Assembly (NCBI RefSeq): GCF_024521635.1
Contig: NW_026250404.1
Span: 1,550,001-1,614,000, forward strand
Reading direction: 5' to 3'
DNA from: Tricharina praecox
Taxonomy: Eukaryota
Length of the DNA: 64,000 nt
Under the pieces are notes generated by a model. It made no database searches and had not been told where the DNA came from. It saw only the letters and a program-made list of their open reading frames with translations. This document shows, in pieces, positions 16,788-31,500 of the stretch (positions are counted from its first letter, which is position 1; every line of letters begins with the position of its first letter). Both the position numbers and the translations under genes were made by a program.

Positions 16788-17823
16788 GCACGGTGCGAAG
16801 CGACGAAAGCAAGGGCCAACATCAATTCCAATTCCTCACATCCTCAATTCCTCACATCCTCAATTCCTCACATCCGCACCGTCGTCGTCGGCGCCGGACC
16901 GATTACCGAGCTGAAAAAGAGCACTCCCGCACGCACGGCGTAAAGTCCAATCAGCAGCCGTGTTTGGGCATGTTTCGTAACTTTCGTTGTGCGAAACTAC
17001 TACTCTGGTTAGTTAGTTGGTGCTCTAGCGAGAGGCAAGAGGCAAGACGCGAGGACGCGAGGAGGCGAGACGAACGGTGGGTCTGTGCGGTGCGGCGGTG
17101 GGGCGCGGCTGAGAACCAGGAGCTCCCCTCTGAACTTTGAAGGGCAGTAGAGTATGGTACAAGGTAGAAGCTGGCACGCGCGGCGGGGGGACGTCGGTCG
17201 CGTCGGTCGGTCACGTAGCACCCACCATCCAGCCCTCGGCGGCGGCGGAGGGATATCGCTCAAACTCTCTTTCCCTCTTGGACGTTTGGATCTTGTCCTC
17301 CTCCTCTTCCCCTCCTCCTTTCTGTAAGGTACCAAGTACTCTGGCAAAGTTACTTTTCACTTTACTTCACTTTACTTTAGAGCTCTCCTACCGGCATGGC
17401 GTGGCGTGGCATGACATAACTACCAATTAGTAGTAACTAGCATGGCATGGCATGCCATGGCTGCCCTTCCCTGTGTCACATCGACACTGCACTCATCCCA
17501 CATCCCACATCCCCACGTCCGTCGGACCCTTGCTCTCCTCCCCCTCTCGCACTTGCACTCCCACTCCCACTCACACTTCGCTCGTAAATTCGTAAACGCA
17601 CAACACATCCGCTAGCTACAGTAGCTAGCGACGACCCTGACCCAAGCAGGGTGGGGCTGTCTCGAGATGGCTGGATGGATGGATGGAGCAGAGTCCATAC
17701 TTGCCTCTCACTACAGTTATGTACCACTCTGGGCACCACTCTACCCTCTACCACTCTACCACTCTACTCTACTCTAGGTAGTAACGCACTCACTCACTCC
17801 CACACGCACGTCCACGTCTCTGT

Positions 17824-17883
17824 TTGCTTTGGTGCTTGCTTTGGTGCTTGCTTTGGTGCTTGCTTTGGTGCTTGCTTTGGTGC
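17824..17883. repeat. (TTGCTTTGGTGC)5 minisatellite
   Basis: Five 12-bp units. Confidence 0.95.
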
Positions 17884-18445
17884 TTGCCTGCTTGCTGCCT
17901 GATTATTTCACTCTACCGACGCCCCAGCTCGTGTCGCCACCTCCCACTGATAAAAGGCCTAATGTGCGTCCATGGATGGTCGCGTTTGAAATGTGCGGAT
18001 GCGGGAGTGGCCGACTCGGGGAGGAAGATGAAGAGCGACGTGACGGCGAGCGAGGGACGTGACGGAGCGAGCGAGGGAGTGACCAAGTGAAGTGAGCAAG
18101 TGGATGGAGAGACCGAGACCGACACTACTCTACTAACCTATACAGAGACGAGAGGGGAGAGTTGTTAGAAACGAATGAACATCCCTACCTCTTTCCCGGC
18201 CCCTACTCTACTCTACTCTACTCTATGATACGCTTCTACGCTGGATGCATAACTACCGTAGAATTAACTACACCCCACCGCGAAGGCGGAGAGCGAGCGA
18301 GGGACAGAGGGAGCAAGATCTTGGAGCCACCGTTTCGGCTACGACTCTTGGCAGAGCTACCGCAGCGGTAACTTGTGTGTAAGTGGCCGAGCAGGCTGGC
18401 TGGGGGGGGGTTGCGTACTCGCTCGTTCTGTTCTGTTCTGTTGGA

Positions 18446-18446
<1 letters not shown>

Positions 18447-18491
<45 letters not shown>
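18447..18491. repeat. (CA)n microsatellite
   Basis: Read directly. Confidence 0.97.
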
Positions 18492-18497
<6 letters not shown>

Positions 18498-21430
18498 CAC
18501 ACACTTGCACCCCCACAGAAGGCGAATTTATCTATTTTCTTCAGGTCAGGTCACGGCCCACTCGCTACTCTACCCACTCTACCTATGTACTCTAGATACC
18601 TACTCTGCCTACTCCACTTCCTTGGACGTGGATCCGTGGTTTCGAATTATCCCGCAAGCATTCGGTTGGAACCTGTGCTCTCCTGTGCCTGTGCGTGTGG
18701 TTGGATACGGAGAGCCCCCAGAGAGATAGGTAGTTATCGAAGTTATCTATCGGACTCCTCGTTGTGGTAGGTATCTGTAGTGTGTGTGCGCGCGAGGAAT
18801 CCGAGGATGTGTGTGTGTGTCTGCTGAGTGGATGGATGGACGCATACTCGCATGCTCGCCCGCCGGCCGACTGGGCGTCCGTGGCAGAACATCTCCATTG
18901 AACGAAAAGTGCATCTGTATGTAGAGTAGATTGCGGCAGTATGTGGGTATGTAGCAGTGAACTGCCTACCCAACTGCCCAACTAGCTGCCGGGATGCTGT
19001 GGATGCTATGGATGCCATGGATGTGCATGGGAATGGGAATTCCGCGTCTGAGGAAGTATGCTAGGTAGGCAGATATGTACCGTATCGCTCTCCAAGTGGC
19101 AGGAGAAGTGTGTGCGTATCTATGGTAAGTAACTCTCCTGACGGACGGACGCGGAGGCGGTCGACGACGGGGAGATGTGTGTGTGTATGGGTGGGTGTGG
19201 GGATATTCTGATGGACGACGAGGTGGTCGACGACGAGGTGGATGATGAGGACGAGGACGAGGAGCAGTACCTGCCCTCTACATCATGTTGGAGTTGGCCT
19301 TACATCCGAGTCGCGATACCGATGCCGGTTCGGCAGCTGGCGGACTGGCTGGCTGGCTGGCAGGCAGTCCGTGCTCGAACCAACAACTGCAACAACATCA
19401 ACAGCAACATCAACAGGAACAACCACAATCACAACAGCAGCGGCGACAACGTCAGCAATTGCACTTTTCGTAACTTGAGCTCTTTGGCTAACTAGTACCA
19501 GCTCCTACATAGTACTAGCATCTACTAGTACTAAATAGCAGAGAAGCTTGAACGGCGCAATAAGCCAGCGCTAACCACTCTAACTACCGGAGGAGAGTCC
19601 AGTCAACTTCGCACGACCGCAGTCTCGTCCTTCTCGCGCATCGGCCCATATGATTTCGCCACTCCCCCCAGACTTCTCCCAGGGCCAAACCTCATCTCGG
19701 CCCGCACTTAGTTGCTAGCAACTAGAAGCTCCTTTTTGGTCGCTACTCCGTGATAGGTAAGAAGCAGTCGAGAGAGCTGTCCAAGTGGCGTACTAACTAG
19801 TAGAGCTCCCCTCTAGCTCACTTGCTTGCTTGCTCGAAGTGGCGGCGCAGAAGTTCACAAAGAAAAAACAACATCTACTCTACAAAACAAAAGAAACCGA
19901 AACCTTCAAGCAAGCAAGCAAGTCAGTCAGTCAGTCAGTCACTTACCCACCTTTTTCCTTCTTTTCTTCTTTCCAAATGACAAATATAAAAACACCATAG
20001 AGTAGAGTACTTGGCGCCACCCTCCCCCCACCCCTCTGAGAGGGCCGCGGTCGTGGTGCATAAGTGCATACTACCTATACCTACGGTGGCGCAAATTCGT
20101 GTTTCTTCACCCTTCACCTGACATTTCATCCGTGCATATTTGTTTCTTCTTCTTCTTCTTCTTCACATCCGTGGGGTTTTTGCCATCCGTTAAACCTAGG
20201 TAGAATTCAGACTCGCTCGCCAGGTCGGTCGGTCGATCGGCGTGCCATGGACCGTGCGAGCGAGCGAGCTGGATGCCCAGATTTAATATCCTCTACACAC
20301 GGTAGATACGGTACCTATCCAGGTGTGTTTTTTCCTGGCCTGGCCCTGCAGAGAACATGTGGCCTGGACTGCTGAGATATGCGCGCCCGCCCGCCTGCGG
20401 CAACTTGCTACCTACCGAGTCATCCGGCCGGCCGGGCTCTCCAGCTATCCGCGAACTTCTCCTGGATGTTGCAGGCGCCCCGCGGGGATGGAGTGGATGG
20501 CGATTTGGGCTCGAGCTCGTGCGAGTGCATGCTCCTGAATAGGTGTACATAGATGGATACATGCGTACGTAGGTAGGTAGCATACGTACATCGGGGTACA
20601 TACCGGCTGGTCACGACTCACTGGTGAACCTGGGGGTTTTCAGGTCCGGATCTTAAGCTTTGAGCACTACCTACGGGCTACCCAAAGGTGGTTGTGGTTG
20701 TGGTGGTGCTAGGTAAGTGGAGTACGAAGGTACCCATCCCTCGCACTCGCCTACGACCACAACCGACCCCATGCATGCGTGCGTACCCCATATCACGGAG
20801 CGGCGGCGGCGTGGTGGGTCGGTCGGTCTGTCGGCCAAAGGCGAGGCAATCATTCGCATACTTTGGCGAGCTCCAGGACTCCATGTACTCCAGTACCTAG
20901 TGTACTCTACTCTACGTAGATGGGTAGATTTATTTTTTCGTGAGGCGTGGACGACTGATGAATTTTTCTTCTTCCTTTCGGGAGGGGAGGGAGGGAGCGA
21001 GGGAGCGAGGAATGGAAGGAACAGAACAGTGGTAAACCGTAAAGGTTGTGTGGTATCGGTATTGCGGTACCTCGAACACACACACCCACACACAGCACAC
21101 ACACATCCACACATCCACACATGAATATCCCCTCTCCCCCCCCGCTCGCCGGGCATATTGTTTTTTTTCCTATTTTTTCTTTTCTTTCTTTTCTTTTCTC
21201 CCTCCCTCCCTCGAGAGAGATCATCCGGGGTCCCGCGTTTTCGACGCTCGGTTTGGTCTGGTTGGTCTGGTTGGCTGGCCTTGGCTGGAGCTCCTGGAGG
21301 TGCAGAGGTGGAGCGGCCTGTACTCTACCCTACTCTATGTAGGATTGGATTGGATTGGAGAGGGGAGGTGGATGTGAGCAGCAGGCGAGAGCCGTTGAAC
21401 CAGGGGTTTGGTGTAGGTGGCCGTGTGCTT

Positions 21431-21488
21431 TTTGCTTTGCTTTGCTTTGCTTTGCTTTGCTTTGCTTTGCTTTGCTTTGCTTTGCTTT
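21431..21488. repeat. (TTTGC)n microsatellite
   Basis: Read directly. Confidence 0.95.
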
Positions 21489-22709
21489 GGGTGGGGAGGG
21501 TGGAGGGGGGGGAGGGAACGCAGGGACCAAGATTTGCGCAACCAGCAACGCAGCAGCAGCAGCAGCAGGAGCATCAAAACCCGAAATAAATAAAATTTCT
21601 TGCATTTGCTTTTGGACTGCAGACTGGAGAATCGAGATGCATACTCTACTCTACATACATACTCTGCACGAAGCAAGGTGCAGGTGGGGGTGGAGGTGGA
21701 AGTGGTGGTGGAGGTGGAGGTGGACTTGGCCGTGGAGGTGGAGGTGGTGGAGGTATTCGTGGTCGTGGCACAAAGCGGCAAAGCCAAAGGAGGAGGAGGA
21801 GCGGTCATGTCCGCGGCGGCCTGACCTGGCATGGCCATGGCATGGCACATCTGGGGCGGCTTGCAGTATGCCAGTGAGTGCTTTGTCCGGTGGTAAACAG
21901 GCGGGGGGCGGAGGGCGGGGGGGACAGCGAACGTCGGGAATTGCTATGGATGGGTTGGAAATCCGCCGGACCAGATGGACGTGGAGGAGGAAGATGAAGA
22001 TGAGGCGGTGGGGGAGGAGGAGGACCTCGAACTCGGGTGTCACGTCACGTAGGTAAAGTAACCATCGTCTATACCTGCAGTTGGAAATTTGGAATGCGTT
22101 GGTAGGTACTCTAGGTAAGTGGATTGGGAGGACGAGATGTTACGCGATCTAGAACCACCCCCTCCCCAGATGCGAAGGGATCTGGGGGTCTGTACATCCA
22201 TACGGCCAGATGCTGCAGATGTTGCATGCCATGGTTAGGCGAGTTAAACCGGATGGAAGCTCTCCATCCGTAGAGTGTAACTCACTCTATTGCATGTCGT
22301 TGTCGTTGTTGGGGATACATATGGTACTACTTTACGGGCAGGCGGACAGGCAGACAAGACGGACGTTGTATTGCATGCGTGAAATATGCTGCTGCTGTTC
22401 TCCAGATATTAGCCTCTGGGGTGCTTTCGAGATACCCAAGCAGATACATATGTGGGTACTTGGTTACGTGCGTTAACGTTCACTCCCTGCGAGATGTATT
22501 TCCAATGCTCTCATGTATGTAGGTACATGAGTATAGTACTCATGTACCGTGATGTATGTCCCCAGGTGTCTCACATGACGGGCCATGGCTTGCTATGTAG
22601 CCCATCGCACAGGGCGGGGAAGAGGGAGGAGAAGATGGAGAAGAAGAAGTAGATCTTTTGCAGATGTGTAGGGAAGTTACCGTACCTGATGTATGTACTT
22701 GGGTATGTA

Positions 22710-22870
22710 CTCGGGTGTAAGGGTAAGTGCTGCCTCACCAGTTTTTCCCCCATGCAGCTTAGTCACAACCACTCACTCATTTCATTGTATCTGGCTTAGT
22801 GTGCTTCTGATATAGACTAGTTCTTGTAATTCGCAATGGTGGTGAGGCACCACTTATTGGCAGCTCCTGG
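22710..22870. mobile_element. 161-bp TA-flanked MITE-like element, same family as 14555-14636
   Basis: TA|CTCGGGTGTAAGGGTAAGTGCTGCCTCACCA ... TGGTGAGGCACCACTTATTGGCAGCTCCTGG|TA. The inner 17 bp of the inverted repeat match 16/17 and lie at equal distance from both TA ends. Confidence 0.7.
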
Positions 22871-25756
22871 TACATGCAAGTACAAGGCTAGGTACATTGC
22901 GTACATACGTTGGGCGATTAGATAGTCCACCTACTTCTTACTTACTCCCTACATACGACATCGACGTCTTCAGAGAACTCCCATGTCAGCCGGCTCCGCT
23001 GATACAGTTCCAACACACCTCGTGGCCGTGGCCGTCTGCTCCTATCGCCTAAACGCTTCTCTCCCACCCACTTCTCGACTAGAGCTGATACTGTCTAGCA
23101 GGGACGTGCAGAGTATGGGTCTCACTCACTTCCATCCAAGCACCCACGACTTCTGCCAGATGATTGGGTGTTGGTGCGATGTGATTTCGAGCCTCGTTAA
23201 CGTTCCCTTCAGGCACCCACCGCCACGGCACGGGACAGGGTAGGCGATAGTACTCCAGAGTACTGCCTGCGACCTCGAGAGATGAGGGAGGGACTTGAGA
23301 ATTCGTGGGCACAGACACACTGGCTGGCTGTCTAACTGCATGACGCCGCCGCCGTCGCCGTCCACGGTGGGAAGGAGTGACAGAGTGCCGATTGAAGTGC
23401 AGTTCTTCCATCGGAGGGGGGGGGGGGGGTGTCGACGGTGGCCACCTCGGGGCAGTTGCCGAAAACACGACCACCGTGACCATGAAACTTGCACTTTGCT
23501 CCCGGGTGCCTAGTGAGTGAGACTGTTGTTGCTATTGTTGTTGTTATTATGGCTGTTGTTGTTCCTGTTATTATTGCTGCTGCTGTTGTTGTCGTTCGAA
23601 CCGTGGGCCTTCACCGAGACATACACATTCGCTATCCAGGGTGCTCTACCTATCGCATGTGCGAGGCAGCAGAGACATACATACGGTACATGCAAGACCC
23701 ACTTCGGTGAAACATACTTGGGCTCCCTCGCTCGTTCGTGGTGTTCTCGCAACGAGTCGAGTGGTTCCGTCCGGTCTGCGTATACATGCGCCCCTTAGAG
23801 TACTCTATGCATACACAGGAGGTTGTCCTGGCCAGTCGAGAGGGGAAAGACACCTCTCAATTGATCCTGGACGCCACCGATGTGACGGGCCGCTCAGCCT
23901 CCCGGATGCTGGCTTGACCGCGGAAAGGCTGGATGGATGGATGGAATGATGGACATGGAATGATGGACATGCAATAATAACAACGACAATATCATCATCA
24001 TCATCATCATCACGGTTTAGCTTGCTCGTTTGAACAATCGTTTCTGCTCCTGGCCAGAGCCGACCGGCCCGCAGGTTGAGACGGGACGAGACATCGAAGC
24101 TCTTTTCCGGACCGCTGGTAGTTGGAGCTCGAGTCGTGCGGGTGGAGTGAAGTTTCACGGACCGTTCGTCTTTCCTTTTGGTCGCGCGAACGAAGCTGTC
24201 CATAGAGTAGTGCTATTATATAGTGGATATACTATGGCTAACCCAGCAAGCTTCCTCTTTCTCCAGAATATCCGTTGGTGCACTTAGCAGATATCTACCC
24301 GTGCCAGTGCGTGAGGAACCAGGGCCACAACAACGCCGAGAGTCACTCTCGAAAGTGTCTCGCCGTCCGCATAATCGTCGGAACTATAGTCATCGGCCCG
24401 GCCTCGAAACGGGTAGGGAATGTCCCGGACTCGGGGATTGTTGCCGGGCTGGACGTGCTCTCCGATGGCAGTATCGACAGTACATACAGTCGTGAATGGA
24501 TAGCAATCGAACGAAGCGGACATGGATTATCACAGTCGATCCCAGTGCTGAATCCAAAGGGCAGGAGAATACTTTGGCTATCAACTATGGCAGCTACTTA
24601 CATATCTACTCTACTGTGGAGCGGAGTGGCGCTCCAAAGTACCCGCCATGTGGCCGTGGCCATGGGGACATGATCCTCAGCCCCCCGTCCAGAATCCGCA
24701 CCGGGTACCCCATAGCTTGTCAAAGTACGGCCCCATAATAACTACCGTCCATCACCCATCACCCATCACCCATCACCCATCACCCATCGCCAACCGTCAA
24801 TCGTCCATCTCCCTCCAGAAGCACTCAGGTATCCACCAAGTACACCCCAACCGCCGTCCATCGCGCTGACCATCATCCCCCGACAGTCCGCGATCGCAAG
24901 GGTGGATTGACCCGTTCGGACGATCAACTCGGTACTCTGTGCTCGGGAATTAGCGCTGCTGCTATGTAGGTCTGTATGTACGAACACCCAACAACTCATT
25001 CGCCGCCGCCGTACCACATTCACTCTCGCTGTGCCTTAGTGGCACTCTGAACACTCATTCATCAACCCACATCACAAATCTGCAGCTGCTTTTGGTGTCT
25101 CTCACTCCACACACCACCTTCTCCGCCCGCCGCCGCCGCAACTCATCAACTCTACGCAACGGATTCGAACTCTACTCTTCGACTTCATCCCCCCATACTT
25201 CCTCCCCCAGTCAACAGCTTCCCCCCCTCCCACTCCCCCATCCCACCAGTTAAACCCGCACCCGCACCCACCCGCCGCACCTCCACCACCACCCACCTCC
25301 CTTCTATCGAATATCGCCGCTACTGCTATTACCACAACTCACAACGCCCCCCTCCCCCCAATAATCCTAGTCAACACCCACCGCATCTCTTTTACCACCA
25401 CCACCATCACCAGCAGCACCACCACCACCACCACCACCACCACCCCGAAAGATACTATATGGAAAGCTGTGTGTGTGTGGTGCCTGTGTGTGGGTGTTTT
25501 CGGCTCCAACCAAATCTCCGGTTTACTTCTCTCTTTCTCTTCCTCTCGAGCACTCTCTTGTTTGTTGAATGAGTAACAACATCCCACATCCATATCCGCA
25601 TCCGCATACGCTTCCATTTCCATAACAAGGCCCGGACTGCCCTGCCTCAAACCGCAATACTCCTACACACCACACCATCACTTTCCCACTTCCACCACTT
25701 TCCACACACACACTCACACACCCTGGAAAACATACAGCTACAGCTACCAGAAGCTG

Positions 25757-25759
<3 letters not shown>

Positions 25760-25810
<51 letters not shown>

Positions 25811-25831
25811 TTACTACTACTGCTGCTGCTG
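25760..25831. repeat. (CTA)n tract grading into (CTG)n
   Basis: Read directly; lies in the putative 5' leader of the transcription factor. Confidence 0.95.
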
Positions 25832-26780
25832 CCGCCCTCCTGACCAACCTGATACCACAACCACTACCACTACCACTACCTACCACCACCACCACCCCCA
25901 GCCGAAAAAAGTTCAGCTTACCCATTTCAACTCCTACATACAACAACACATATCATCCCCCGACCCCCTCGACCATCTCCCTTCCCGCCTTTTCCAATCG
26001 TCAACTACAACAAACAAAGGAAGGCACAAAAAATATCCCGTCGACTCCAGCAATTCCCTTTCGTCTGATCTTTTGTGTCGCTCGTTCGTCGCCCTCCCAT
26101 CGGTAACTGATCGATTGAAACTCTATTCCGCTCCGACCACCGAACACCGCCAACTGGCAACCACGACCCATCGCAACTCGCCTCGTCTCAGCCTTACCAG
26201 CCCGTCCAATTAAACCACGAAATCGAAGCTGTCGTTTCGCACCAGAGAGATATCACCATCCACCATCCGCTTCGATTACTGGAGGACTGAGTCTTCACCA
26301 CTTGCTTTTTGCTGCGGCTGAATTGAAAGAGAAAAGACAACTGAAAGAGAAATAGAGGGAGAAAATTAAAGGGAAAATCTTCAGCTCTGAAGAACCTTTG
26401 GGATACCTGAAGGCTCTCCGATAAATAAAACAGAAGAAAAATAAAACATATTCGCACCGACAAAGTCGGGCAGCTTCAGGCAGGTTCGCCCTGCACCAAT
26501 CGCCAACATAGCGGCCGATAAGTCTCAGTCGCCGGTCGGTCAGCATTGGCCTGATCGGTTGTTGTCGTTAAGGGACCAGTACCACCAACAACACCAGTTC
26601 CCTCTGTCTCCCGACAACACCCAGCCTCGGTACGCGACCGACCAATACAACAACGGAAACGGCAACATCGTCTTTCGGGACGGGTTCTGGAGTCCGACAA
26701 GTGAGAGGAACGGCTCAGGCTCAGGCTCAACCAGTAGGAGCCCGGACGAAGCCAACAACAACAGCGACGGTTTCTTCCGT

Positions 26781-28579
26781 ATGGCAGATGCAGGTCTGCA
26801 CCATTGCCACTCTAACCGAAGCTTCGGCAGACTCTCAATATCGTCAGCCTCTACCACGTCTTCAGGCGCCTCCTCCATGGTGGGACGCACAATGTCAAGT
26901 TGTTCACCAGACTCGTCAACGAGTTCATCGCCGCCCTACAGATGCTCGCCTCTCCCGACAGACGAGCCAGTCACCAAGATCGAGGAGGTGGACGATGATG
27001 ACAAGAGCCAACTGATGAGCGTACCGCAAATCCCGACAACGCTCACCAACGGCGAGCCGGTCAAGCGTGGAAGAGGACGGCCGCGTAAACACCCCGTACA
27101 GCCACCGAAGACTGTCCAGAAGGTTACGAAAGGGCGGTCCAAGACCGGATGCATCACATGCAGACGTCGCAAGAAGAAGTGTGACGAGACAAAACCTGAA
27201 TGTACGCTGCATTCGCCCCTCCAAAAAAAAACCCATGTGGTTTGGCCTACTAATGACATTTCTTCTTTTTTGCAGGCAACAACTGCGTCAAGAACTCAGT
27301 GGTGTGTCAAGGGTACCCGGAGAAGACTGTTTGGCAGCCGGGGCGACACAAGAACGAAGGTAGAGCCAACTCTGTATATCCCCCTTTCTCGCCGCATGAG
27401 ATCCTAACCGTTGCAGCGCGACAAGCAGCCAACGCCATCAGCCAGTCATTGCCCACCCTGGTAGATGGAGTCGAAAGTCGTATGGACCACTTCTTGTTGG
27501 ACCATTTCACGCACCGGGTCAGCAGGATTCTAACGCTGTTCGACGATGACAGCAACCCATTTCACGATTTCCTGCTGCCTCTGGCGATGCGGCACCGGGC
27601 GTTGATGCACTCCCTGCTGGCCTTGTCGAGTTCGCACCTCGCCAACTCCAACGACCAACATCCCGACTACCAACAAGCTCAGGGTCATCATCTTAGCGAG
27701 GCACTGTCGGCTCTGCGACTGGGGTTGAACGATGGTTCGAGCAGTAACGATGCGGCTACAACCTTGATACTGTGCTTGGACTCGATCGCGAAGGGCGACA
27801 CTTCGGGCGAATACCGACCGCATCTCGAGGCGGCACGGGTAATGCTTTCGTCTGACAAGAGTCAGGAAGACATCCCACTCAGACGTTTCTTGTACGAGTT
27901 CTTTGCGTACCACGACGTCGCCAACTCGGTAACGATCCTGAACCGGAATCCGAGCTTTCTGAGTGACCTCCCGATGCCGGCATTCATAATGCAGCCTGAG
28001 ACTGGAGCTCTCCTCGGTGTGCTCGACGGACTGTTCACCCACATGTCCAAGATCACGATATTGAGGAATCAGATCCGTGAACGCAGGGAGAAGCATATCG
28101 ATCCAGCGGTCGATTACAAGATGCTCACTCAGGCCGTCGCAATCGACGCCGAGATTCACGAGTGGAAGCCCGCACAGCCGCCGAACTCGGTTAGATATAT
28201 CGCGGCACAACTCTACCGCCAGACAACTTGGGTCTACCTCTACAGGACCATCATGCCTTCTCAAGCGTCGCCCAAGATCCTGAGCGCGGTGGAGGCTGGT
28301 CTGGAGTTTATGCGCTTGCTCCCGGAGCATGCGGGTACGCAGAGCATTCTGCTCATGCCGCTGTTCTTACTCGGTTGCGCAGCATTCGATTCGTCTCAAC
28401 GGCCAGAGATCAGCCGGAGATTCAGCGGTCTGCACGAATGGTCCGGCTTGGGCAACATCGTACCGGCACACGATGTGGTCAAGAAGATTTGGGGGCTGAT
28501 GGACGCCGGAGATGAGGAGGCTACTTGGGACTGGGAGTCGTTGATTCAACAAATGGGATACGATTTCCTGGTCACCTAG
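26781..28579 (+). CDS. AT-hook + Zn(II)2Cys6 transcription factor with fungal-specific TF domain (architecture resembles Aspergillus OefC-type regulators, recalled not verified); introns 27202-27275 and probably 27360-27416; true start may be upstream
   Basis: AT-hook KRGRGRPRKHP; binuclear cluster CITCRRRKKKCDETKPE|CNNCVKNSVVC restored across a GTACGC...ACTAAT...CAG intron; C-terminal domain with NPF..LLPLA..H..LMHSLLALSSSHL, FFAYHDV and ILLMPLFLLGCAAF. The first in-frame AUG is 26781. Confidence 0.93.
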
Positions 28580-31500
28580 ACGCGTCGATTTTGCTGGAGA
28601 GGCGTTGGGATGGGCGGAGGGGTCTTTTTTTCTTTCTCTTCACTGGCGTTGTCGTTTTTCCGCATCGTTTTTTTTTCATTTTGCTTTTACCTTTCCTGCA
28701 TTTTCACTTCTTTATGGGGTCGGAGTTTCGGATTTGTGTTTTTCTTCTTTTTCTTTTCTTTTTCTTTTCTTTTTCTTTTTCTTTTCTTTTTCTTTTTCTT
28801 TTCTTTCTCTCAGCGTTCTTGGTCTGTCGACATCTCATATCCCTCTTACGTTTCCTGGGGAGCTTTTTCGTGGATGGCTTCAGTTTTTACTAGTACCTTT
28901 TTTCCCCCGAATGTTTCATTGACGGCCGATGTTTTTGAGTGGGTCTATGTTTATACTTCCTCCTTGTGTCCTGTTTGCCAGTTTTTGGTTTGTTTCACTC
29001 CATCTCCGAATTAGGGCGGCTATCTGTTTGATTTTCTTTATGTTCATTTCCCGCAATTTTTCGTTTTTTCTTGGACGGGGCCAACCAGGCAACTTGGGGC
29101 ATCGCATTTCTCGGCATGCGAGTGTTGTGTCGTGCAGAAGTGCAGGAGAATTTAGACTTTGGGTAGAGAGATATATGTACCCGAATCTGTGTGGCCTTTT
29201 GATTTCCAGTTTTTGTTTTTTTGTTTTTTACTTTCAGATGCTTCGTTTTGCAAATGCTGGTGGGGCTTTTTTTTCCTGTTGTCTTTTCTTCTTCTGCTCG
29301 GTTCTATTCTAACTATGCTCTACCTATCAAAGGATCTTTTCCTTCTCGTCGCTTGAAGTACGTATACGGGGGGACGGTACGGTACATATGAACATTAAAG
29401 GCAATGGCTGGCGCAGGAGGAGGAGGAGGAAGCTTCAAGCTTGCTGCTTGCAGGACATCAGGGTGTCCCTACCTACATACATAGAGTACAATGTATATCT
29501 GAGCTACCTATCCGTCTATCCCACTTGCATACGAGTATGTACATAAGTGCCTGATGTTTACTGCCTGTATGTACGTACAAGTGTCAATCACGAAGAAGGC
29601 GGCAAAGGCTTGGTTGAAGGCAGCTTCTCTACACTAACTACTACTACATAGTAGTAGTAGAAGTAGGTGCTCTAGTGTAGTAGTGCAGTGTAGTAACTAA
29701 ACCTCCGCGAATCTGCCATATGATGTCGACCAGCAGTAGTTTTGTGCGGAGGATGCATGTGGAGTATCATCTACCCACCTACCACTTACCCACCTGCTAC
29801 CTACCCAGCTACAGTAGATACAGTACAGTAGCTGTGCATCCCCCGACCCCGTCTCCGCCCCGTACCTGCAAAACTTTCTTCTTCTTTCTTCTTCTTCCGA
29901 GTCTTTCCTCTTCTTTTTTCCCTCGTCAATCACCCCACCACCCCCCACCACTCTCCAGCCCCACCACTCTCCGGCCCCGTCCCTGACCCTGCCCTGTCCT
30001 TCACTCGCTCGTCCGTCCGTTCGTACCTTTCCGCGGGATTTTTCCCTTCGTCCCCGAGATGTTTTTTTTGTTTTTCTTTTGCTGCTTTTCTTTTGCGGCT
30101 TTTCTTTTTCTGGGTTTGGTTTTTTAGTTTTGGGAGGGTTGGAGATGCGAGGGTGGGATATGCACATCCACACATGCACATCCACACGACGTCCACGACC
30201 GTCACCCCCCCTCCCCCTCCCCCCCGCCTCTCCGCGTCCCTCCCGATACCGCGGAGGCGCATGGATGGATGTGTGGATGGATGGGTGGGTGGATGGGGGA
30301 TGTGCGGTGTGCGGTGTGTCTACGGTGTGTGTGCGGTGTATGTGTAGTGTGTGCGACGGACCGGACAGGACAGGACAGGACGGGATAGGGCAGTCCAGGG
30401 CCAAGAAAGCATATCATGCCTGTGCCTGTGCTTCCCTAGTTACGTGGGGGAGGGAGCCTGGAGGGGGAAAATTTCACCCCGCCCACGCATGCCACCCACG
30501 CACCTACGCATCAACGCAATGATAGGGCTGACGAAGTGCCCCGAAGTCTGTTCACGGACGTAACCAGTTACTGTAGACGTAACTGTGTGATAGACGTGGA
30601 TGGGTAGACGTGGGTGGGTAGACGTGGGTGGATGCGGGGAGGGGTCCTAGTGGTCCACCGCCGGTGGAGGTGGAGGGGAGGTGGAGGTGGGTAGGAGGTG
30701 GGTTACGTTTTGCCGTTGGCAAAGCGAATCGAATGGATTGCGTTGCTTTTTTTCTCGAGAGGGAGACTGAAGGGAGAGGGACTGACTGATGGGAGAGGCC
30801 GGGACGGTACGGTGAGCGGCGTTTGCTGCGTGTGTATCTCCCGACGGCGACGGCGACGGCGACAACGGGGAGAAGGAGATGCTACGGAGTCTGGATCTGG
30901 CAGTAATCTAGAGTAGTTGGGTACGCATACGTCCCAACACCTCAACTCTACTCTCCGTAGGTAGGTACCGTGCGGGGATAGGAAGATGAACTTGGAAAGG
31001 CCGGAGCCGGTCCAGAAGTGAAGCTGCAAAGGTGCAAAGGTGCAAAGGTGGCGGGCGAGATGGTGGCTACATACGACGCTGTTCTTGCTCGCTCGCTCGC
31101 TCGTTGGCGTTGGCATTGGCGTTGGAATTGGCGTTGGGCGTTGTGGGGTACATACCTCCTACATACATACATGCTGCGATACTTCGTACGTCCCTCACCC
31201 GTAGATCACCCCCCCTCCCCTCTGCGGAGTAGTGGTGTTGTGCGGCCACAAAATTGCCTGGCCACTGGTGATGGTGGTGTGGTGCGGGGCGGGAAGTTTT
31301 TTTTTGCTCACCTCATGTAGGAAGTATCTACAGTACCTGTCATGTATCGTACTATCGTGTATCGTACTATCGTGTCCATGCATCCATCTCCGGTACATAA
31401 AGTACAGCTACCGTAGGTATATATTTTTCGTGTGTCACCCCTCTCCAGTCCAGTCCAGCTTCCAGGAGGATGGTGAGCATGTGAGTACATAAGCATGTAT

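Follow-up and report, generated by a model that had tools for sequence, protein, structure and literature searches.

Where does translation of a transcription factor begin when its reading frame runs far upstream of the first AUG on its mRNA? The question is raised by a locus of Tricharina praecox that lies within the 64,000-nt stretch of contig NW_026250404.1 analysed here (the window; positions are those of this stretch, and all features described are on the + strand). The original prediction was that an AUA codon serves as the start of an N-terminally extended form of the protein. Our comparison of the locus with its orthologues indicates that a longer form of the protein probably does start at a non-AUG codon.

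The gene and its AUG-free leader

From its domain and similarity matches, the gene is a Zn2Cys6/Fungal_trans_2 transcription factor of the OefC type. Pfam searches gave a match to PF11951 (Fungal_trans_2, E = 9.6e-67) and a match to Zn_clus that, since intron 1 interrupts the cluster, is partial and scores 20.9 bits (cut-off 21); both PF00172 and PF11951 are present in the orthologues. The best named relatives place the host among the Pezizomycete fungi. The product is 45% identical (E = 1e-123) to a Penicillium protein named OefC, whereas its identity to a protein named PRO1A is only 35%. Counted from the first AUG, CDS exon 1 (26781..27201) ends in the first half of the Zn2Cys6 cluster, to judge from the partial Zn_clus match and the RNA joint 27201->27276. 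Exon 2 (27276..27359), delimited by the RNA contigs, carries the second half of the cluster, and exon 3 (27417..28579) contains the Fungal_trans_2 domain and the stop codon TAG. The two introns (27202..27275 and 27360..27416) are both of the GT..AG type and are removed in the RNA-derived contigs of two out of two runs (X1 and X2); for intron 2, the cut was shifted two places to the right of the RNA joint 27357->27415 seen in X1 and X2.

The + strand had been described as free of ATG for about 1.2 kb ahead of this CDS, and it is: no ATG occurs between 25569 and 26781, a gap of 1,212 nt that is the longest in the window (the runner-up is 583 nt) and in which a first-order Markov model would lead one to expect 7.8 ATGs. 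The X1 and X2 contigs are collinear with the window from 25845 to 27201 with no mismatch and no gap, which places both leader and upstream frame on the mRNA. The part of the transcribed, unspliced and AUG-free leader that is shown on the mRNA spans 25845..26507, while the ATG-free stretch itself begins after 25569-25571. Two circumstances named beforehand as fatal to an AUA start were a transcription start site (TSS) downstream of 26508 and a spliced upstream exon supplying an AUG. The transcript reaches at least 663 nt 5' of 26508, and no AUG-bearing spliced exon was seen in the dominant transcript, the X1 and X2 contigs having no joint in 25845-27201. The RNA evidence consists of assembled contigs, each with a single depth value, without TSS resolution and with minor variants dropped, and it is compatible with a share of transcripts that start 3' of 26508 or with rare spliced forms. 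A minor transcript with an upstream exon or a different TSS might provide an AUG, and low-depth X1 contigs do lie further 5' (25453-25747, with a depth of 18, and 24884-25205, with a depth of 4.19 and a joint 24825->24884). However, the contigs collinear over the whole leader are the dominant ones (depth 306.6 and 399.8), an acceptor would be needed 3' of the in-frame stop (26442) but 5' of the conserved codons at 26508, and the in-frame stops of the relatives are at other positions. We consider an AUG supplied in this way extremely unlikely.

The leader was AUG-free in 12 out of 12 orthologous loci examined, over 762 to 1,689 nt: 1,214 nt in L001, 1,226 nt in L002, at least 1,017 nt in L003 (bounded by the contig end), 765 nt in L004, 762 nt in L005 and L006, 1,634 nt in L007, 1,610 nt in L008, L010 and L011, and 1,689 nt in L022. 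The Markov expectation was 5.7-13.1 ATGs per leader (L001, L003, L004, L007, L008 and L022). Among distant family members, L009, L044 and L049 have an ATG 51-86 nt 5' of the first in-frame ATG (3/3, these being all those with enough upstream sequence). The Tuber-like orthologues do not keep the extension, and their leader is nonetheless AUG-free; the absence of AUG is therefore not dependent on the extension alone. In L022 an in-frame stop lies 20 codons before the AUG.

Coding conservation of the upstream frame

The transcription factor frame is open from 26445, 112 codons ahead of the ATG at 26781-26783, as originally read, and is bounded by an in-frame TAA (26442..26444); across the species the stops precede the ATA by 22, 34, 70 and 33 codons. 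The last 91 of these codons (26508..26780) form the putative N-terminal extension, which continues into the transcription factor without a change of frame. Their coding-like appearance is borne out by GC3, which is 0.705 in the transcription factor frame versus 0.51 and 0.505 in the two other frames, where 2 and 4 stops occur. One further frame of the window has no stop between 26572 and the ATG.

Four species were compared (the window, L001/L002, L003 and L004-L006), the DNA of the three related species being from metagenomes. In the three relatives, 79-96 codons 5' of the AUG remain in frame, with neither stops nor frameshifts between ATA and ATG. The dN/dS of the extension (NG86) is 0.215, 0.17 and 0.187 for the three close pairs (Fisher p = 3e-6, 5e-7 and 1e-7), with dS of 0.53-0.62, and shifted-frame controls gave 0.94-2.45. 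All 10 pairwise gaps in the extension are multiples of three, whereas of the 39 in the preceding 600 nt 11 are; the same two regions have similar DNA identity, 0.77-0.83 versus 0.71-0.77. Just after the ATA, GGC/GGA and CCG/CCC are synonymous changes, and a serine switches codon family, being TCT in the window, L001 and L003 and AGT in L004. Six homologous proteins (P0001, P0002, P0006, P0005, P0003 and P0275) align into the extension. The called starts of P0275, P0006, P0005 and P0003 lie upstream and are given as M, which need not stand for ATG, since a single GTG start appears in the caller output both as M and as V (P0001 versus P0265). The alignment of orthologues proposed as a check thus returned an open frame, changes biased to synonymous sites and a conserved near-cognate codon. 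Taken by its substitution and gap patterns, the extension is evolving as protein-coding sequence in the transcription factor frame.

Could the upstream frame instead be untranslated, its conservation reflecting an RNA- or DNA-level element or the recent relic of a lost AUG? The whole leader is moderately conserved in DNA (0.71-0.77), and the second open frame of the window would also suit such a reading. However, the transcription factor frame alone has a dN/dS near 0.2 (at least 0.94 in the shifted frames), the gaps of the extension keep to multiples of three throughout, and the GC3 periodicity tracks the same frame. As for a relic, the AUG is missing in all four species despite saturated synonymous divergence to L004, and the frame would therefore have been kept long after any loss of an AUG. 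An untranslated frame is very unlikely.

The AUA codon, its context and the downstream hairpin

The in-frame ATA at 26508 lies within gccaacATAgcg, exactly 91 codons before the ATG, and has the A at -3 and the G at +4 that had been ascribed to it. The initiation context CAACATAGCGG (26504..26514), with the proposed AUA start at 26508-26510, is conserved: the ATA is invariant in 4/4 species (window, L001/L002, L003 and L004-L006), inside an invariant CAA(C/G)ATAGCGG. This motif was found in 6 of the 80 loci retrieved, and it matches once in the window, where 0.07 matches would be expected by chance. About 35 nt 5' of the ATA there are indels of 10-11 nt that break the frame, and no further near-cognate codon of the upstream interval is shared by the four species. 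In this alignment the conserved near-cognate ATA lies at the 5' edge of coding conservation. AUA is among the weaker near-cognate codons; within the CDS, ATA makes up 4 of the 25 isoleucine codons.

A different start for the extension would have to be a species-specific near-cognate codon, either 5' (ATA 26448, ATC 26499) or 3' (TTG 26559/26562, CTG 26604) of the invariant ATA. Another 21 codons 5' of 26508 are free of stops and include such near-cognate codons, and the ten codons preceding the ATA are also alignable in frame in the three close species, so that the start could lie slightly further 5' in single species. On the 3' side, CTG or TTG codons occur in the conserved LL of the DRLLSL motif. 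None of these alternatives, however, is conserved in the four species or combines a purine at -3 with a G at +4, and the frame-breaking indels upstream of the ATA also count against this reading. The residues right after the ATA are conserved at the protein level, as the synonymous changes and the switch of serine codon family indicate, and therefore the start is not 3' of those residues. A start at another codon is unlikely on this evidence.

The first AUG (26781..26783) is the probable start of a short isoform. Its context, ttccgtATGg, is weak, with C at -3 as noted before and G at +4, and the Tuber-like loci, L001, L003 and L004 share its methionine with the window.

A hairpin had also been proposed downstream of the ATA, and folding recovered it at 26531..26559, with 12 pairs, one bulge and -16.5 kcal/mol; its first paired base is at +24, and the other register (26533-26561) begins at +26. 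The z-score is -2.9 when the hairpin is folded alone, with 3 of 200 shuffles folding equally well, and just -0.96 in a 101-nt context. The four-species consensus fold keeps 11 of the 12 core pairs in all four species, with only one-sided or wobble changes and no double compensatory change in the core. This conservation is possibly due to coding, since the hairpin overlaps the conserved codons GQHWPDR. The position at +24 to +26 falls within the range of +23 to +26 reported as best for a structure downstream of CUG in reticulocyte lysate (PMC11165317).

That 4/4 species strictly keep ATA with a G after it would also fit A-to-I mRNA editing, which in fungi accompanies sexual development and could turn AUA into AUI, read as AUG; the long isoform would in that case be switched on through editing and not through decoding of a near-cognate codon. 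In all four species the third A of the codon is preceded by U (-1) and followed by G (+1). In Fusarium graminearum, 85.7% of the edited sites are described as having U at -1, with A/G favoured at +1 and UAG/UAA as preferred triplets (PMC4817773). Sexual-stage editing is reported for the Pezizomycete Pyronema confluens (PMC5381528), and AUI derived from AUA is described as competent for initiation in reporters, in the order AUA < AUI < AUG (PMC13542072). The locus thus shares with known fungal editing the U-A-G triplet and a lineage in which editing is reported. In the consensus fold, moreover, a 4-bp stem carries the AUA in its 7-nt loop, but single-sequence folds with 30 nt on each side do not support this placement, the A being in a hairpin loop in 0/4 species. 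The base at +2 is C, whereas the enriched base is given as G (PMC4817773), and the A at -3 and G at +4 are explained equally by initiation context. The X1 and X2 contigs have no other letter at the site, although contigs drop minor variants and partial editing would be invisible in them. No report of start-codon creation by fungal editing was found in the literature searched. We regard editing as the source of the long isoform as improbable. Its fuller version, in which the invariant AUA-G is a developmental switch, edited in the sexual stage by the tRNA-deaminase machinery into an AUG-like start whose context is otherwise perfect, with the long isoform of a developmental regulator made only in fruiting tissue, is a little more doubtful still; if true, it would be the first start-codon creation by mRNA editing in fungi.

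A two-isoform model and its known counterparts

The reading that we favour, and hold to be fairly likely, is initiation of the 91-residue extension at the AUA, aided by the hairpin, together with leaky scanning to the weaker AUG, giving two isoforms. The 5' leader of the mRNA would be unspliced, at least 936 nt long and devoid of AUG in all frames, and scanning 43S complexes would arrive undiverted at the AUA at 26508 because the leader is AUG-free. There they would meet the codon in a near-ideal context, CAAC-AUA-GCG, with A at -3, G at +4 and alanine as the second codon, and with the hairpin next, at +24 to +26. Some ribosomes would initiate at the AUA with Met-tRNAi, producing the long isoform with its N-terminal extension, and the remaining ribosomes would scan on to the conserved AUG at 26781, producing the short isoform. 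Initiation at AUA, the help of the hairpin, the two isoforms and a regulatory use of start-codon stringency are what we infer from these features.

That the locus is a further case of a known kind, the near-cognate-initiated N-terminal extension, is well supported. The closest likeness is to Neurospora crassa cpc-1 and its homologues, described as encoding a fungal transcription factor with a long leader and a conserved in-frame extension 5' of the main AUG, translation of which is deduced to start at conserved near-cognate codons with favourable bases at -3 and +4 (Ivanov et al. 2017, PMC5487733). In Agaricomycete homologues of cpc-1, the single conserved near-cognate codon can be AUU, UUG, AUA or CUG (PMC5487733). 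By the same account, cpc-1 differs in having two AUG uORFs, whereas this locus has none, in using several near-cognates rather than a single invariant AUA, and in encoding a bZIP rather than a Zn2Cys6 protein (PMC5487733). The present extension, known from sequence and RNA contigs, also belongs to a different and narrower clade, a subset of the Pezizomycetes without the Tuber-like orthologues. The stable stem-loop 3' of a non-AUG codon, inside the optimal range, recalls structure-assisted RNA translation (START) as presented in PMC11165317; it differs in stability, with -16.5 kcal/mol here versus -21.6 for the model structure, and the assay there was of CUG in rabbit reticulocyte lysate rather than AUA in a fungus. 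A third likeness is to the C/EBP isoforms (cited in PMC5487733), in which a good-context near-cognate codon and leaky scanning to a poorer-context in-frame AUG yield long and short forms of a transcription factor. C/EBP belongs to another protein family and kingdom, and the isoforms at the present locus are predicted ones.

Annotated orthologues begin at an AUG, either the first or a later one (e.g., Trichophaea hybrida P0151). If the extension is real, they miss about 80-96 conserved residues, among them the motifs GQHWPDRLLSL and FRDGFWSP, which may have a regulatory function. The locus also suits studies of start-codon stringency in filamentous fungi as a clean natural test case, because three features meet there: a kilobase-long AUG-free leader, a single codon that is weak but invariant and has ideal flanking bases, and a hairpin whose distance from it is the one predicted to be optimal. 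The AUG-free leaders of every orthologue, the Tuber-like ones included, suggest that selection has kept 0.8-1.7 kb open to uninterrupted scanning, which merits an explanation of its own.

The AUG-free leader and its transcript

The plus strand carries no ATG between 25569 and the first ATG of the transcription factor (TF) gene at 26781. This gap of 1,212 nt, put at about 1.2 kb in the original prediction, is the longest ATG-free run anywhere in the 64-kb window (the second longest measures 583 nt, and the minus-strand maximum is 693 nt), and 7.8 ATGs would be expected in it under a first-order Markov model of the same stretch. The other elements predicted for this region were recovered as well: the TF frame is open from 26445, directly after an in-frame TAA (26442–26444), for 112 codons ahead of the ATG; an in-frame ATA (26508–26510) lies 91 codons ahead of the ATG in the context gccaacATAgcg, with A at −3 and G at +4, and would open a 91-aa extension (26508–26780); and the first ATG has C at −3 (ttccgtATGgca).

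Sampled words were found at fractions of 0.86 and 0.79 in two sequencing runs (X1 and X2, from two studies and two organisms) and almost not at all in three others (X3–X5). When the X1 and X2 contigs were compared with window positions 23000–30000, each run yielded a contig close to 2.8 kb in length (at depths of 306.6 and 399.8, respectively) that skips exactly both predicted GT..AG introns (27201 to 27276, and 27357 to 27415, where the cut is read two places further right) and follows the genome collinearly between 25845 and 27201, free of gaps and differing letters. The absence of the introns indicates that these runs are RNA-derived, though no run is recorded as RNA. The mRNA has at least 936 nt ahead of the AUG and at least 663 nt ahead of the AUA, unspliced and AUG-free; both lengths are lower bounds because the contigs stop at 25845, adjoining a trinucleotide repeat, upstream of which depth drops to 18 in X1 and 0 in X2. 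A transcription start site (TSS) downstream of 26508, raised with the original prediction, is not what these contigs indicate. Nor is a spliced AUG-bearing exon seen in them, and a cryptic exon of this kind is extremely improbable as the source of the start, although each contig has a single depth figure and TSSs, minor isoforms and partial editing are not visible in such data.

The repeat at which the RNA contigs stop on the 5′ side is an (ACT/CTG)n microsatellite (25750–25845), and the 3′ region holds a (CTTTT)n repeat (28730–28810); the contigs break at both. RNA cover restarts at 28814 at similar depth and runs to 29828 in X1 and past 30000 in X2, so that the gene may have a 3′-UTR of more than 1.2 kb or may be abutted by a second transcript. 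An 18-codon ORF (25569–25625, stop TAA) starts at the last ATG ahead of the gap; it lies upstream of the high-depth transcript, is covered by the depth-18 X1 contig only and would be an upstream ORF only in rare longer transcripts. The roughly 8 kb upstream of the gene (about 17000–25500) is of low complexity, has no convincing long ORF and is covered by low-depth RNA contigs only, two of them spliced (23112 to 23213 and 24825 to 24884, both in X1 only).

The gene family and conservation of the leader

On the basis of Pfam and the RNA contigs, the coding sequence from the ATG comprises 26781–27201, 27276–27359 and 27417–28579 on the plus strand. Pfam matches are to Fungal_trans_2 in exon 3 (E = 9.6e-67) and, at the end of exon 1, to the first half of Zn_clus. 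The best named relatives belong to Pezizomycetes (Trichophaea hybrida, Tuber, Geopyxis, Rhizina and Pyronema), and the window is thus probably of Pezizomycete origin. The C-terminal domain is nearer to OefC, a protein so named in Penicillium (45% identity, E = 1e-123), than to PRO1A, so named in Fusarium (35%), and orthology to PRO1/ADV-1 was set aside on this ground. No similarity to Penicillium OefC was detectable in the extension; the two proteins align only once the basic stretch is reached.

A single metagenome scan gave 80 loci from relatives. Among these, L001/L002 and L003 represent two close species (81–82% identity over residues 10–252 of the translated query), L004–L006 a third, more distant one (54% identity), and L007–L011 and L022 are Tuber-like loci that match from the Met onward only. 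The run before the first in-frame ATG was ATG-free over 762–1,689 nt in all 12 orthologous loci examined, where 5.7–13.1 ATGs per leader would be expected under the Markov model (L001, L003, L004, L007, L008 and L022). An upstream ATG does occur, at 51–86 nt, in each of L009, L044 and L049, the three remoter family members whose upstream sequence was long enough. The AUG-free leader of the orthologues is a family trait. The Tuber-like loci L007, L008, L010, L011 and L022 have ATG-free leaders of 1,610–1,689 nt (10.3–13.1 ATGs expected in L007, L008 and L022). An in-frame stop lies 20 codons ahead of the AUG in L022, at a place where L007 reads through, which indicates that the extension is not kept in this lineage; the AUG-free leader is kept nonetheless. 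The −3 base of the conserved AUG is C in the window, L001, L003 and the Tuber-like loci, and G in L004.

Within the leader, a block at 26255–26320 is conserved in all four species (about 2790–2860 in L001, 500–560 in L003 and 2800–2860 in L004). It reads CCATCC..CGATTACTGG..GA..G..TT..CTTTT, then GGCTGAA, even in the distant L004, and the adjoining sequence is rich in indels; this block may have a regulatory role within the leader. An Rfam scan of 25400–26900 gave no match at E up to 1.

The extension is coding sequence

From ATA to ATG the frame is intact in all four species, spanning 91 codons in the window, 96 in L001, 93 in L003 and 79 in L004. Nei–Gojobori dN/dS of the extension was 0.215 (window–L001), 0.17 (window–L003) and 0.187 (L001–L003) at dS 0.53–0.62, with Fisher tests of non-synonymous versus synonymous changes giving p = 3.2e-6, 4.6e-7 and 1e-7; the remainder of exon 1 gave 0.04–0.05. 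When this alignment was shifted into either of the other two frames, dN/dS rose to 0.94–2.45 and stops appeared. In free nucleotide alignments, pairwise gaps were multiples of three in 10 of 10 cases in the extension (DNA identity 0.77–0.83), 6 of 6 in exon 1 after the ATG (0.85–0.90) and 11 of 39 in the 600 nt upstream of the ATA (0.71–0.77), these counts coming from species pairs that are not mutually independent. GC3 of the extension is 0.705 in the TF frame versus about 0.51 in the others. Amino acid identity is 0.80–0.81 among the close species and 0.42–0.43 to L004, in which A-G-D-x-S-P directly after the ATA is retained, the changes being synonymous or, for serine, a TCT/AGT switch. Divergence from L004 at synonymous sites is saturated, and an upstream ATG is present in none of the four species, so the frame has long been maintained without an AUG, which rules out a recent relic of a lost AUG. 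The extension is present on the mRNA and coding, and an upstream frame kept open without translation is very unlikely.

Homologous proteins were collected by a full HMMER scan with the translation of 26445–27200, in which the Met is residue 113. Five align upstream of it: P0001 (86% identity, residues 10–252), P0002 (60%, 31–252), P0006 (48%, 26–252), P0005 (63–252) and P0003 (75–252). P0275 (665 aa), a cluster member from spliced contigs, has a homologous extension containing KIAAD, GQRWPDR and YRDGYWSP motifs. P0001 and P0265 are identical except for a first residue printed V and M, respectively, indicating that GTG starts were used by the callers and that an initial M printed in ORF calls of this kind is not necessarily encoded by ATG. 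Where the window has its first AUG, P0006, P0005 and P0003 have no Met, which fits a more upstream protein start in these species. The organisms of P0275 and P0006 are not represented among the 80 metagenome loci. A search in which the 91-aa extension was the sole query matched only P0001 among 59 candidates, so this search gives no measure of how widespread the extension is.

The candidate AUA start and its neighbourhood

The codon matching 26508 is ATA in all four species and sits in an invariant CAA(C/G)ATAGCGG. This motif occurs once in the window (0.07 matches expected) and in 6 of the 80 loci, exactly L001–L006; ATA is a minority isoleucine codon in the TF gene (4 of 25 versus 16 ATC). 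In-frame stops lie upstream of it at differing distances (22, 34, 70 and 33 codons). About 35 nt upstream of the ATA, the window differs by frame-breaking indels of 10–11 nt from both L001 and L003, which themselves differ by 1 nt at the same site. The residues directly downstream of the ATA are under protein-level constraint. Between the indels and the ATA, no near-cognate codon is common to the four species. Translation of the extension from another start codon is consequently unlikely, and the best candidate start is the invariant ATA, which is flanked by A at −3 and G at +4 and followed by an Ala codon.

The predicted hairpin downstream of the ATA is present at 26531–26559 (−16.5 kcal/mol), with a z-score of −2.9 folded alone and −0.96 in a 101-nt context, where its stability is not unusual. 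It begins at +24 from the AUA in the single fold and at +26 in the four-species consensus fold; a study of structure-assisted non-AUG initiation puts the optimal structure position for CUG in reticulocyte lysate at +23 to +26 (PMC11165317). Of the 12 core pairs in the consensus fold, the four species share 11, all changes being one-sided, with one A-C mismatch in L004. Since the hairpin overlaps the conserved GQHWPDR codons and shows no double compensatory change, its conservation may stem from coding constraint as well as from any selection on structure. Single-sequence folds also give a second small stem-loop from +4 of the AUA (26511–26532) in all four species, pairing GCGG... with ...CGC or CCCGU.

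It is conceivable, though improbable, that the start is created by A-to-I editing of AUA to AUI. AUA-G contains the U-A-G triplet favoured by fungal A-to-I mRNA editing (PMC4817773), such editing is reported from sexual mycelium of the Pezizomycete Pyronema confluens (PMC5381528), and AUI derived from AUA is initiation-competent in reporters (PMC13542072). However, the X1 and X2 contigs show no variant at the AUA, which is weak evidence from assembled contigs, and single-sequence folds leave the A outside a hairpin loop in all four species. The literature searched, which covers part only, contained no paper on start-codon creation by fungal editing and none on non-AUG initiation in Pezizomycetes.

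The closest precedent comes from cpc-1, whose near-cognate-initiated extension is conserved in Pezizomycotina and Basidiomycota and involves AUG uORFs and several near-cognate codons (PMC5487733), whereas the TF gene has no upstream AUG and a single invariant AUA. As judged from sequence comparison, the support for a putative AUA-initiated extension is unusually clean. Cap-dependent scanning would pass through the long AUG-free leader, partial initiation at the AUA would give a long isoform, and leaky scanning to the conserved AUG would give a short one. We infer that the TF is made as two isoforms from these starts, that the hairpin would assist initiation at the AUA, and that start-codon stringency would regulate this transcription factor.
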